From positions 62,001 to 126,000 of the forward strand of contig NIVC01001412.1 in the NCBI GenBank assembly GCA_002269645.1: a stretch of DNA of 64,000 bases, in the 5' to 3' direction. Numbering within the stretch: the first letter of the stretch is position 1; the number at the start of each line of letters is the position of its first letter. A program made the position numbers and the translations under genes. The notes below the pieces were generated by a model. The model was given only the letters and a program-made list of their open reading frames with translations. It did no database searches and had not been told where the DNA came from. The stretch is from Macrostomum lignano (lineage: Eukaryota). Shown in pieces: positions 18,986 to 26,087 of the stretch.

Positions 18986-19314
18986 ATGATATTTTCTGGA
19001 ACACCCTCGTGGAATGGAACTACAAGAACTGGCGGTGAATCAAGTGGCATTAATGTTTCATTTGCCGACAACCGATATATTAATGAAGATGAAGGTTATA
19101 AAAAAACTGAAATTGATACTAAACTAAATTTGAAACGGAATGTCGCCGATTCTTATACCAAAACTCAAATCGATGATTCATTAAATTTAAAACGCAATGT
19201 TGCAGATTCCTATACCAAAACAGAGGTTGACAATTCCTTAAATTTAAAACGGAATACAGCTGATTCATATACCAAAACTGAAGTCGATAATTCACTAAAT
19301 TTGAAAAGAGATAT
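18986..19314 (+). pseudogene. Fiber-like gene of Polinton 1, 5' part with 19-aa repeats
   Basis: (TKTEVDNSLNLKRNxADSY)n 57-bp repeats. The frame continues at 23799 once the Ngaro element is removed. Confidence 0.8.
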
Positions 19315-19480
19315 TGCATCGGTTTGCGCGAGCCCGCGAGGGCTAACCGCTGTTAGTGCAAGAGGGGGGTTGTTTGGGTGCTGGCTGTCTGGTGGGGTGG
19401 TGGGTGCGTTGGTGCGTGCGCGTGCCTATTTAGGCCGCAACCTTTGTGGCTGCGCAGGGGTTGCTCGCGGTTGAATTTTT
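19315..19480 (+). repeat. Split direct repeat A1
   Basis: Near-identical to 23484-23650. Confidence 0.93.
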
Positions 19481-19498
19481 GAATTTTTTTGCTGAATC

Positions 19499-20591
19499 AT
19501 GGCAGATAGCCTTGTACTACTCGCAACTAACAAAGCGCTACGAGAAGCCCTTAGTGAGCGCGGCCTGCCTACTAATGGCAATAAGCAAGAGCTAACAAGT
19601 CGTCTAAAACTCAGCATTGCCAAGGAGCTTGAGCGGCAGGCGTTGGAGCAGGACAGAGGCTCATCTCGTCGTGCTCAAGATGACAAAACATCACCGACGA
19701 ATGCGGGCGCACCCGAGCTAAGTCTGGCTCCACCTGAGGACGAGATGCTACCGGCGGTGGGCGCCTCGGCCGAGGGTCGGGCGGCGACGGGAGGCGGTCT
19801 CGAGGATCAGCTGCGAGAGACTGAACTGCGCATTCGGCTGCTGGACCTGAAAAAAAGAGAGGCTCAGCTCGAAGCCGAGCTCGCTGAAGCGCGTCACAGT
19901 GGCACGGCGGCTGCGAGGAGAACGTGATCAGACTCCCGGTGAGTGGCATGATTTGGTTGGCGAGTGTATACTCGGGCAGGCTGGGGCTGCAACTTCGCAT
20001 GCTCAGGCGCCGGCGGTGTACAGAGTGATTGATTTTATCAGTGAGCGTAAGCGGAGACAAGGAAGCCAGTCTGTTGTGGGAGCGGCAAAGCCAGAGAGGT
20101 TGAGACACGTCAGTCCCGAGTCACTGTCATTTGGCGATTTCATCTCCGGTAGCTGTAACTTACTGGTGCAAATGCTGCGTGATGGCAAACTGCTGCGCAT
20201 TGTTGATGGCAGAATCGATTCATCCGAGTTGATCGATCATCTCCGACATAACGCTAGAATTGGTGACCTGCTAGATTTAGGCTTCGATCGCACTAAAGTC
20301 ATGAGATATGATGACGAATGTCGGCTTCTCCAGCATGATGGAAAGCGGTGGAGCGCTGTTAGCGCAGACCTTGGTCTGGTGGCAACACACTTGATGGCAC
20401 CAACAAAAATGATAAATGCAACAGCGCCTGAAAAGCGAACACAGCCACCTGTCTGTTTCGACTTCAACAGTCTTAGCGGCTGCAACAGAACTCACTGCCG
20501 CTTCGCCCATCAGTGCCGCAGGTGCTCACAGCCGCATTCTGAAGCCCGAGCCCACGCTGATGGGGACCCGGGCCAACTTTCAAAAAACTAG
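19499..20591 (+). pseudogene. Ngaro ORF1 (gag-like) with N-terminal SAP motif and C-terminal CCCH/CCHH finger; split into two ORFs
   Basis: LREALSERGLPTNGNKQELTSRL (SAP pattern) and CFDFNSLSGCNRTHCRFAHQCRRCSQPH. Confidence 0.75.
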
Positions 20592-20599
20592 CGTGCGAG

Positions 20600-23398: not shown

Positions 23399-23483
23399 GG
23401 GGTTGCATCCTCTGGCTTTTCGCTGCCTCGCCATCGCCACACTCGGTTTGTCTTTGTCTTTGTCTTTGCCTCCCCTTCACTAA
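23399..23483 (+). repeat. Split direct repeat B1
   Basis: Repeated at 23721-23798 and abuts A2. Confidence 0.92.
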
Positions 23484-23650
23484 TGCATCGGTTTGCGCGA
23501 GCCCGCGAGAGCTAACCGCTGTTAGTGCAACGGGGGACTGTTTGAGTGCTGGCTGTCTGGTGGGGTGGTGGGTGCGTTGGTGCGTGCGCGTGCCTATTTA
23601 GGCCGCCACCTTTGTGGCTGCGCGGGGTTGCTCGCGGTTGAATTTTTTTT
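23484..23650 (+). repeat. Split direct repeat A2
   Basis: Copy of 19315-19480. Confidence 0.92.
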
Positions 23651-23720
23651 CCTCGCTAATTATAACTTTTAATCAGTTTAATTCGTTTTAACAAGTCATG
23701 AAATAAATACGATCGATTGA

Positions 23721-23798
23721 GGGTTGCATCCTCCGGCTTTTCGCTGCCTCGCCATCGCCACACTCGGTTTGTCTTTGTCTTTGCCTCCCCTTCACTAA
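23721..23798 (+). repeat. Split direct repeat B2
   Basis: Copy of B1, ending CACTAA. Confidence 0.92.
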
Positions 23799-26087
23799 CG
23801 CTGATTCCTATACCAAAACCGAAGTCGATAATTTAGTTGGAGGCGGAACTGCAAAACAGGATCAATTCCAAACCGTTGAAACCGGTCACGTACCAGCAAT
23901 GACAGATTGGAGTGGAAATGGTTTTGGAATCACCGCAAGCACATGTCACGTTATTGGCGTAGAGGCTATGACCCTTAGAAGGGCCGTTTTACGAGAGTTG
24001 TCGTAAGTCGTAGTCCCAAAATGAATCGAGTCAAGTCTTGAGAAGCGGATTGTGTAGCGGAGCACTTGGCGTACAAGGCAGGGAACTGCCGTAGTTGATT
24101 TATTGTTGAGATCAATATTCAAATTGGTTAATGTCAATATAGAACTTATTGCGCTTGGGACACTGGCGGCTGCAACAATGGTTTTGAATTGAAGGTGAGT
24201 TAGAAATTGCAGTCGAGTGGCAGGCGAGTGATGCAAGGCGATGCAACGTGGTGAGTAACGGCGATGAGCACAGAAGAGGCAGATGCGTAGTGGTGAGATT
24301 GGCGTTAGCCGTGGCAGACAGTGGCAGGCAGTGTAAACAGGCTGGCCCAGACAGAGGAGCCGTGGCGAGAGATAAGGGGGGCTCGAGGCAGCCCGAAACC
24401 AGACAGAAGGCAGGAGAAGGAGCGAAGGAGAGGAAGGAGAGGGGCCCGCCGCCAGGCGGGGGGGGGGTTAATAAAGAGCGCAAAAGGGGGGTAGCGTAAA
24501 CACGGAGAGCCTTCATTGGCTGGCGAGAGAACTTGAAATTATCGATCGTGCCAAAATTCACAGACGAGCGCAAGGCCTACCAAATACACAGTGAATTAGC
24601 AGTTGATACAGATTATTTGCACGCTACTATAAGTAAACGTTAAAATAAACTATTGGAGAAATTAAAATGAGAAATTGCAAGGGAAACTATAGTCCAACGG
24701 CCCTTTTGCGGGACCACTTAAACTAGCAACGTCACACACAGCATTTAATACAACCGATTTTGCAAGTTGGAAAGCGTTTGATGGTAATGATGCAACTGAT
24801 TGGGCGACCGCTAATACTCAAACCGATTATTGGATTTAAGTCCAATGTCCATCCGCTATAATTTGTTATAAAATTGATTTGCGTGGTAGACCATCACCCT
24901 CAACCGAGCACCCCGCGTCATGGCGATTCGAGGGGAGTAATGACAATACAAGTTTGGATGTCTTGATTCCGTCAGAGAATTCGGTGGTAATAAATAATTC
25001 AACTCAAACATTTAATGTCACACAAAATTTTGACAAAACCTATACATATTTCGGATTATTCTGTCTTACTTCAACATCAGGTGCCACCAACCCCGGTCTG
25101 TCAACCTTCCAGATTTATCGACAGACTTTTACAGTTATTGATTTGAATTTGGGTTTTGTTAATCAATCGTTGGATATGGGTGGTAATACAATCACTAATA
25201 TTTCAACCATAAACAATAAAAGTTCTGTTGTTACTAAAGGTTACGTAGATACTCGTGTAACACAAACGGCAGATGGCCGAATGTCTTTTAATGATAAAAT
25301 TAAATTGGATGGTATTCCCGCGATTAATGCCGCTTTGTACGAACCCGTAATTTGTAATTGGGCTGGGTATCAAAACCCATCCACAGCTGGCGATATTTTT
25401 CCAACGGGGTCTTTTGTTGGAGATGCTTTATATATTGATTATCAAAATAGAGCTAGAATTACTGATGAATCCGCGGGAGTCAGCGGAGCGTTACAATTTA
25501 ATTTTACCCATTTTCGTAATATTTCCATCTCCTTCTTTTTCCGAGTTGCTAATGCTGCGGGTGGTGGAGCCGGCGCTGATGCAGTTTGGTTTTATGCATA
25601 CTGTCACCAACGCCCAACAAGTGAATTTGGAACAGGTTTAACAACAAACGCTGGTTTGAAAGTATTTGCGAGTGAGTGGCATGACAGATTTGGTTTGGTT
25701 TGGAGTAATATAAAATCAGATGGAGCCACGGTACGTAATGATGTTCTTAATGACGCGGATCAAACACTAACCTACGCCAACATCGATAATGGCGATCGGC
25801 ATCTGTTCGAAATAAATATTCTTAATCAAAGGGTTTGGTATCGATTAAATTCATACAACGTTTCGGGTGATTCTTATACGCTAATTGGGCAGAACGTTTT
25901 TACGTATAATAGTGGAACATGGGGAGACCTAGATAAAACTAGAACTCTTATGGGATTTGGTGCTCGAACCGGAGGAGCGGATGCTGCACATTTTATTCGC
26001 GGCGCAGTCGTTTGTGGCAGTACTTCATTTGGTTATAATTTTCCTTCTACGGATTATTTAGAAAAACCACCTGTGCAAATAAGCTAA
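23799..26087 (+). pseudogene. Fiber-like gene 3' part: F5/8C discoidin-like domain plus L-type (legume) lectin-like domain, interrupted by a solo LTR
   Basis: WKAFDGNDATDW...WI*V...WRFEGSND (discoidin-like); GAGADAVWF, DGDRH and MGFGARTGG...HFIR (L-lectin-like). One stop at 24837. Confidence 0.75.
23944..24736. mobile_element. Solo LTR (793 bp)
   Basis: TGTCACGTT...AACGTCACA imperfect terminal IR, 4-bp TSD CACA (23940-23943 and 24737-24740), AATAAA near 24468. Removal restores the frame. Confidence 0.88.

Follow-up and report, generated by a model that had tools for sequence, protein, structure and literature searches.

What kind of fiber, if any, did the broken Polinton in a 64,000-nt stretch of the Macrostomum lignano genome carry, and what might it have bound? 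The stretch (assembly GCA_002269645.1, contig NIVC01001412.1, positions 62,001 to 126,000 of the forward strand; hereafter the window) contains a 24.7-kb Polinton at window positions 11455–36152, and the gene in question lies within it. Whether and how animal Polintons spread as particles, and which receptors they use, is an open question; the particle side of it is framed in the accessible text of PMC8502044. The original prediction, made from the sequence alone, joined three segments between 18986 and 26087 into a fiber-like protein with shaft repeats, a discoidin domain and a legume-type lectin head, and took it as a sign of infectious virions with carbohydrate tropism. We regard it as probable, at roughly seven chances in ten, that the gene is what remains of the vertex fiber of a Polinton that formed particles in the past, and that this fiber bore a discoidin domain and a non-canonical L-type lectin tip.

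Three pieces of a single gene

The pieces 18986–19314 (329 nt), 23799–23943 (145 nt) and 24741–26087 (1347 nt) sum to 1821 nt, i.e., 607 codons including the terminal stop, or 606 when read with X at the three breaks; the predicted frame of about 606 codons was thus recovered, together with its sole internal stop (TAA at 24837–24839, third piece) and all four motifs quoted for it (WKAFDGN, WRFEGSND, GADAVWF and GFGARTGG). The 57-nt period of the repeats continues exactly across the first insert, with 48 nt of repeat 4 on its left and 9 nt on its right. A discoidin profile built from 35 relatives, with the window sequence excluded, scored 143.8 bits on piece 2 + X + piece 3 vs 130.7 for piece 3 alone (+13), and adding piece 2 moved the start of the match from profile position 36 to 6 (of 152). 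All 23 controls stayed at least about 9 bits below the joined score, with a maximum of 134.9 for 20 shuffles of piece 2, 131.0 and 126.7 for wrong frames and 132.7 for the native end of the inserted long terminal repeat (LTR). Because the repeat register is exact and the discoidin profile extends across the inserts, the three collinear pieces are a single gene. Its GC content (0.33–0.46) resembles that of the Polinton, vs 0.55 in the first insert.

Both inserts were of the kind predicted. The first, 19315–23798, has split direct repeats (A1 19315–19480, B1 23397–23483, A2 23484–23647, B2 23717–23798) and open reading frames (ORFs) for SAP, reverse transcriptase (RT)/RNase H and a tyrosine recombinase. 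The order A1..B1-A2-B2, these enzymes and the missing target duplication are what we take to define the Ngaro family. The second, a solo LTR at 23944–24736, begins with TG, finishes with CA and has CACA at both flanks. Spliced introns were considered for the inserts and rejected, their ends not being GT...AG. No second copy of the solo LTR or of the fiber gene was found within the window.

Shaft, discoidin domain and stalk

The shaft consists of four 57-nt copies from 19096, 67–77% identical to the first, and a partial fifth repeat, whose 34 nt in the middle piece share 94% identity with 19259–19292. The predicted count of about 4.5 YTKTEVD repeats agrees with this, but the literal motif occurs in three of the five units, the others reading YKKTEID and YTKTQID. 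The 19-residue repeats match PHROG 5004 (E 6e-12) and the tail-fiber PHROG 10305 (E 1e-4), as expected of a fiber-like shaft. No signal peptide or transmembrane segment was predicted in the fiber. The homology of the N-terminal anchor was not established: its best value in the Atlas, 0.88 for a Preplasmiviricota cluster, lies below 0.9, and a further comparison showed linker rows only.

For the F5/8C-like domain, the part on piece 3 alone matched Pfam PF00754 with E 2.5e-6 (28.1 bits, curated cut-off 28.2), its relatives reach E 2e-27 with the same family, and the domain also matched the tail protein PHROG 17517 (E 9e-13). A 23-sequence profile matched 32 PDB sequences, nearly all of discoidin/CBM32 type, including modules of a GH92 mannosidase (E 6e-15) and of chitosanases. 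A single-sequence model of piece 3 had a predicted local distance difference test (pLDDT) of 28.9. Judged from sequence comparison, the assignment to the discoidin fold appears secure; the fold does not imply a sugar ligand, its relatives including protein- and lipid-binding domains. Since 49 of 98 other proteins collected carry a discoidin domain, often behind LDM-x-x-N-type shaft units, shaft plus discoidin is a common architecture. Twelve of these 49 begin with an M-x-V-D/N-x-F-G-type motif, which we take to be a common start of Polinton ORFs in invertebrates.

The original prediction had suggested modelling a trimer; three chains of stalk and head, modelled without an alignment, scored 0.37 vs 0.01 for the best of three controls. 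The mark of this complex score was calibrated on two-copy cases: 21 of 30 proteins solved as pairs attained it, and none of 23 solved as single chains did. The runs share at least 24% of contacts, the partner pLDDT is at least 59, and confident contacts are confined to stalk residues 1–23. The model supports a homotrimer formed through the stalk and would fit a fiber with three free heads.

A head with an L-type lectin fold

Direct searches of Pfam, NCBIfam and PDB sequences with the head returned nothing. Its model, built from a 43-sequence alignment, was confident (pLDDT 82.5, predicted template modelling score 0.82), and the top structural match was ERGIC-53 (Z 21.3, root-mean-square deviation 3.3, 213 residues aligned, 14–16% identity), followed by VIP36 (Z 19.7), peanut lectin (18.6), the M. 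jannaschii legume lectin (18.0) and SraP (16.5). The Entamoeba lectin and Emp47p were also among the best matches, whereas CBM66, GH16 and other rows of the concanavalin A (ConA) fold reached Z values of at most 15.7. The best Foldseek match in the PDB had E 4e-11, and a search with the sequence profile of the head matched the M. jannaschii lectin at E 7.5e-7 and ERGIC-53 at E 1.5e-4. In the Atlas the head scored 0.92, with 10 of the 10 best family matches in one clan. Neither the head nor the discoidin part nor the relative P0005 matched any of 50,697 phage records; structure comparison found phage proteins with the fold of the head. The model thus supports an L-type (legume-like) lectin fold, all best structural matches being L-type lectins, and both folds named in the original prediction were recovered by profile or structure searches.

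When the head is aligned with rat ERGIC-53, its GAD falls on GAD, its S-E-aromatic on D-S-F and its R-T-G-G on A-T-G-G, so that it keeps the loop Asp (Asp121), the stacking aromatic (Phe154) and the Gly-Gly pair (251–252) of the ERGIC-53 type; the matching of these residue numbers to motifs in the head is partly our assumption. With L-type lectins as a group (ERGIC-53/VIP36, legume lectins, M. jannaschii 7ELV/7EXO, SraP/Aap) it shares the fold (Z 14.7–21.3), the GAD loop, the aromatic stacking position, the TGG loop and a C-terminal His, at 9–16% identity. According to the available portion of PMC3912170, ERGIC-53 contacts mannose through Asp121, Asn156, Gly251, Gly252, Leu253 and Phe154, and mutation of Asp121 or Asn156 abolishes binding. 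In place of the D-[ST]-[FWY]-x-N sugar/metal loop the head has S-E-W-H-D, as placed by sequence alignment and counting; it is an L-type lectin by fold that fails one defining feature. All 32 family rows keep the polar pocket residues Glu, Glu, Arg and His; ERGIC-53 lacks the Glu, Glu and Arg among them. A pattern that included GAD served to find 26 of the 32 rows, which accounts for part of the invariance of the Asp, a bias that touches this motif only. We read the pocket as a remodelled site rather than a canonical Ca/mannose site; the invariant Glu, Glu and Arg would suit a sugar site that has changed, one that may take an acidic glycan.

Relatives of the head

A scan of 1.84 billion representative proteins with the head (E 0.001 or better) returned 75 proteins, two of them close and probably partial: P0002 (54–55% identity) and P0003 (64%). 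The genome contig collection that was searched consisted of prokaryotes only; 27 of 112 pattern matches in it were confirmed as the head, representing 26 loci (14 in Patescibacteria/Saccharibacteria/Levybacteria, four in Hadarchaeota, one in Deianiraeaceae). Several other loci resemble the candidate phyla radiation (CPR) in gene size and tree position and could be bins with a wrong label. Eight of nine loci inspected have the head within a very long open frame (1400–3200 residues), and prokaryotic members of the subfamily are 25–37% identical to the window head.

Four Hadarchaeota loci (L017, L018, L020 and L021) join a pilin/archaellin N-terminus to the head-type lectin fold, which suggests lectin-tipped pili. 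The Deianiraeaceae protein (L006:3783–5792) combines DUF2793, a fiber repeat, a stalk and a head-type lectin amid housekeeping genes; no prophage genes were found in this 8-kb locus, and the protein is possibly a domesticated phage fiber used as an adhesin.

P0002, P0005, P0011 and P0019 have the same stalk as the window gene directly before the head, and stalk and head therefore seem to move as a unit. Discoidin was present in none of 41 head-bearing relatives and the head in none of 49 discoidin-bearing ones; the pairing of discoidin with an L-type lectin was found in none of the 98 collected. In an unrooted quick-search tree of 64 head rows, whose genome rows are prokaryotic only, the window head, P0002 and P0003 form their own clade with a Shimodaira–Hasegawa-like approximate likelihood ratio (SH-aLRT) of 100 and a stem of 1.28. 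The placement of this clade among the prokaryotic rows is weakly supported (SH-aLRT 82–94). Transfer of the head from prokaryotes is plausible from these sequence relationships; the tree gives no direction, because of this placement, the missing root and the prokaryotic collection.

The Polinton that carries the gene

The element has terminal inverted repeats (TIRs) of about 330 nt, 97.9% alike over 331 nt, with AGT-type ends, a 6-bp duplication, a protein-primed DNA polymerase B (pPolB), an rve integrase and an A32-like packaging ATPase, all features of Polintons (Table 1). The ATPase, penton-like and protease-like genes immediately precede the fiber gene, which shares their strand and lies inside the TIRs. 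The ATPase matched Pfam Pox_A32 on two pieces (E 0.005 and 0.002), and its region was matched in tblastn (E 2e-7) by the ATPase of a second Polinton in the window. The capsid- and penton-like genes are about 21–22% alike those of the second Polinton, a weak likeness, and the protease-like pieces are presumed to be such from their motifs. Because genes are split over at least two frames, PolB contains a stop and a Gypsy-type element lies in the right arm, this copy is dead; part of the gene breaks could be assembly errors. As its capsid, ATPase, penton, protease, integrase and polymerase regions are broken, the infectious virions of the original prediction can be argued for the ancestor and not for the present copy.

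Table 1 Features of the Polinton and of the reconstructed fiber gene (window positions)
Feature	Position	Strand	Remarks
Polinton/Maverick	11455..36152	.	24.7 kb; TIRs, AGTAGT ends, 6-bp target duplication GACCTG
rve integrase, two pieces	12358..13397	-	Pfam PF00665 E 1e-6
Virion module upstream of fiber	15257..18973	+	each gene in at least two frames
Putative major capsid	15257-16700	+	identified solely from location, weak likeness and motifs
A32 ATPase	16764-17443	+	weak Pfam support
Putative penton	17544-18342	+	identified solely from location, weak likeness and motifs
Protease-like pieces	18603-18973	+	identified solely from location, weak likeness and motifs
Fiber piece 1, N-terminal 37 residues, putative penton anchor	18986..19096	+	
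Fiber piece 1, four 19-residue shaft repeats	19097..19314	+	fourth cut by Ngaro
Ngaro (tyrosine-recombinase) retroelement	19315..23798	+	A1-ORFs-B1-A2-B2; target duplication absent
Fiber piece 2, remainder of repeat 4, incomplete repeat 5, first ~25 residues of discoidin (from ~23866)	23799..23943	+	
Solo LTR inside discoidin domain	23944..24740 (LTR 23944-24736)	.	TG...CA, 4-bp target duplication
Fiber piece 3, remaining discoidin (F5/8 type C), stop 24837-24839	24741..25118	+	Pfam PF00754, PDB profile, PHROG 17517
One LDMGGN...KGYVD phage-fiber-type shaft unit, then G-x-MS-x-x-DK-x-KLD stalk	25170..25322	+	stalk is the predicted trimer interface
L-type (legume-like) lectin-fold head	25344..26033	+	uninterrupted
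Pocket positions of the head	Asp 25578, Glu 25623, Ser-Glu-Trp-His-Asp 25671-25685, Arg-Thr-Gly-Gly 25965-25976, His 25989	+	
Protein-primed PolB, internal stop	28317..30334	-	Pfam PF03175 E 1e-14 and 1e-5

The insertion site of the element is a LINE-type RT gene, whose ORF flanks it at 10948–11454 and 36153–37296, with the 6-bp target duplication inside the ORF. Upstream of PolB, a Gypsy-type retroelement (30700–35200, minus strand) with DUF7041 gag, protease, RT, RNase H and integrase is nested; no paired LTRs were found for it. The ORF 13960–14511 (minus strand) shows an H-I-D-H...N...N pattern, which we take to resemble an HNH nuclease, and had no Pfam or PHROG matches.

Comparison with known systems

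For Polinton-like viruses (PLVs), earlier publications describe repeat-shaft fibers that carry discoidin and ConA-type modules. In the available text of PMC12220804, their modular fibers, encoded in the virion module, join phage-tail-type repeats (PTR) to carbohydrate-binding modules, namely discoidin (F5_F8_C/FA58C), the ConA-superfamily domain Laminin_G_3 (LamG3) and, in one PTR fusion, an H-lectin. These fibers differ from ours in belonging to protist PLVs and in that discoidin is single, paired, fused to patatin or a separate gene; the ConA-type module is LamG3, and that text names neither an L-type head nor a fiber pairing discoidin with an L-type lectin. Unlike PLV fibers, the window fiber has no S74 chaperone. 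Tetraselmis PLVs carry a tail fiber and an FA58C gene (10.1101/2025.10.09.676808, available portion), purified particles of PLV Gezel-14T contain the tail-fiber-like Ltf (10.1101/2022.07.28.501842, likewise), and beta-helix fibers appear in the accessible text on oomycete Polintons.

Adintoviruses and other animal Polintons share integrase, pPolB, ATPase and a virion module within TIRs (PMC8502044, accessible text). Its MELD virus maps have "Fiber" and galactose-binding "Lectin" labels, in legends for elements outside the animal dataset; the accessory virion genes it stresses for animal adintoviruses are PLA2X, GasderminX and cupiennin, not lectin fibers. A term search of the accessible text of the coral polintovirus paper (PMC11131425) and of a 2026 PLV framework preprint gave no mention of fiber or lectin. 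The giant proteins of Patescibacteria, the pilin-N fusions of Hadarchaeota and the DUF2793 protein of Deianiraeaceae share the head subfamily, but have no discoidin, and the window head, P0002 and P0003 stand apart in a long-branched clade. Neither an L-type lectin head nor its pairing with discoidin turned up in the literature searched, although the annotation tables and Fig. S6 of PMC12220804 could contain one. Of the novelty claimed for the tandem lectin architecture, what looks new is the L-type head, with identifiable relatives that are prokaryotic surface proteins, and its pairing with discoidin; shaft, discoidin and ConA modules were known from PLVs.

A model of the fiber and its alternatives

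In the ancestral fiber, three chains would have formed a rod. A short N-terminal segment may have docked on the penton, the 19-residue repeats would be the shaft with discoidin part-way along it, and the phage-type stalk would hold three lectin-fold heads at the tip. Virion location and penton docking are suggested by the position of the gene and by analogy with Gezel-14T. The heads would most likely have bound a cell-surface glycan through the remodelled pocket, and discoidin would have been a second site, perhaps for a glycan or a lipid. Such a gene could have been built by module swapping, a shaft-plus-discoidin fiber gaining a stalk-plus-lectin module of the kind seen in prokaryotic surface proteins. 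After integration the element would have decayed, with Ngaro, solo LTR and stop breaking the gene.

Several results speak against this model. The double jelly-roll major capsid, single jelly-roll penton and cysteine protease expected of a Polinton had no matches in domain and profile library searches of this element. No intact full-length relative of the fiber occurs among the 98 collected proteins. The trimer score, obtained with no alignment and read against a two-copy calibration, may be a memory of solved phage fibers. Besides carbohydrate-binding modules, the discoidin profile matched neuropilin b domains and factor VIII. Pfam matched no family on the head; among its relatives, 3keto-disac_hyd matched 17 of 43 and Lectin_L-type 16 of 43, all under the L-type cut-off, and in the sequence-profile search the longest neurexin/LamG chains scored above the lectins. 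In the pocket, the position of ERGIC-53 Asn156 is Asp in the head (in the family, D in 18 and N in 4 of 32), and the position that we take to be the Ca-ligand, metal-binding Asp is Ser (S in 21 and D in 9 of 32).

The two changed pocket positions and the profile scores of protein-binding ConA folds such as LamG also fit a virion fiber whose head bound a protein or another non-sugar ligand, or was only structural, in which case carbohydrate tropism would be wrong. Neuropilin b1 and factor VIII C2, both among the discoidin matches, bind peptides or lipids. We consider this unlikely, though the most serious alternative: the structure places true L-type lectins well above LamG and GH16 folds, the GAD and TGG loops are kept, and the invariant Glu, Glu and Arg sit on those loops.

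There is a small chance that the fiber was directed at something besides the host cell, for instance a microbe or a helper giant virus with its glycosylated surface, or was cargo of an element that only transposed. Some virophages enter on giant-virus fibers (PMC12220804 and 10.1101/2022.07.28.501842, in their available portions), and the identifiable relatives of the head sit on microbe-attaching prokaryotes. It has, however, its own pPolB, integrase and ATPase and a full-sized virion module ending in the fiber gene, and PLV fibers are generally taken as host-attachment proteins (PMC12220804, accessible text).

That the pieces are adjacent by chance or derive from a captured host lectin gene is very improbable: an intact copy is missing from the 98 collected proteins and a stop lies between repeats and head, but the 57-nt register is exact, the 13-bit discoidin extension exceeds all 23 controls, a target duplication surrounds the LTR, GC is low as in the Polinton, and the head is 14–16% identical to ERGIC-53 vs 54–64% to P0002 and P0003. 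A secreted host lectin was likewise rejected, given the missing signal peptide and the low identity to ERGIC-53.

Other elements in the window

The second, different Polinton (52456–63711) has a double jelly-roll capsid (Pfam E 1e-5), a penton-like ORF, an ATPase, an adenain-like protease, a PolB that contains an insert of the endonuclease VII type, and an ORF resembling pX (Adeno_PX E 1.6e-6); pX-like domains are described for animal adintoviruses in the available text of PMC8502044. Together with a Mab-21 domain elsewhere in the window, this ORF points to an animal as the probable host. No match to the fiber gene was found in it (52–64 kb). The ORF 45673–47232 encodes a Mab-21 C-terminal domain with a weak likeness to cGAS (E 0.04) and is possibly a cGAS-like receptor. 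An 805-residue ankyrin ORF (40366–42783) comprises about 19 tandem 99-nt units, with tandem arrays of 8, 21 and 28 nt nearby. An LTR retrotransposon at 5415–9595 (minus strand) is probably young, since its 184-nt LTRs are 99% alike and it lies inside another LTR-element region.

Significance

The value of the locus is limited by its being one decayed copy and by modular lectin fibers of PLVs having been published already. Its head is uninterrupted and foldable, a directly testable candidate for receptor binding, and uncultured episymbiotic prokaryotes carry this domain on attachment proteins of their own; in these organisms ConA-like lectins have only been speculated to mediate attachment (PMC12911398, available portion). 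Tentatively, and with the odds somewhat against it, an animal Polinton may have taken a stalk and lectin tip from the adhesin pool of prokaryotic episymbionts or their phages and added it to a discoidin fiber, yielding a two-site attachment protein; its tip would define a Pfam-invisible L-type subfamily with a remodelled Glu/Glu/Arg pocket, common to Patescibacteria, Hadarchaeota, a Deianiraeaceae bacterium and this eukaryotic virus lineage. If this is true, knowing which glycan the head binds would reveal both a receptor class, as a first candidate, that an animal Polinton may have used and a ligand of an attachment domain of the CPR.

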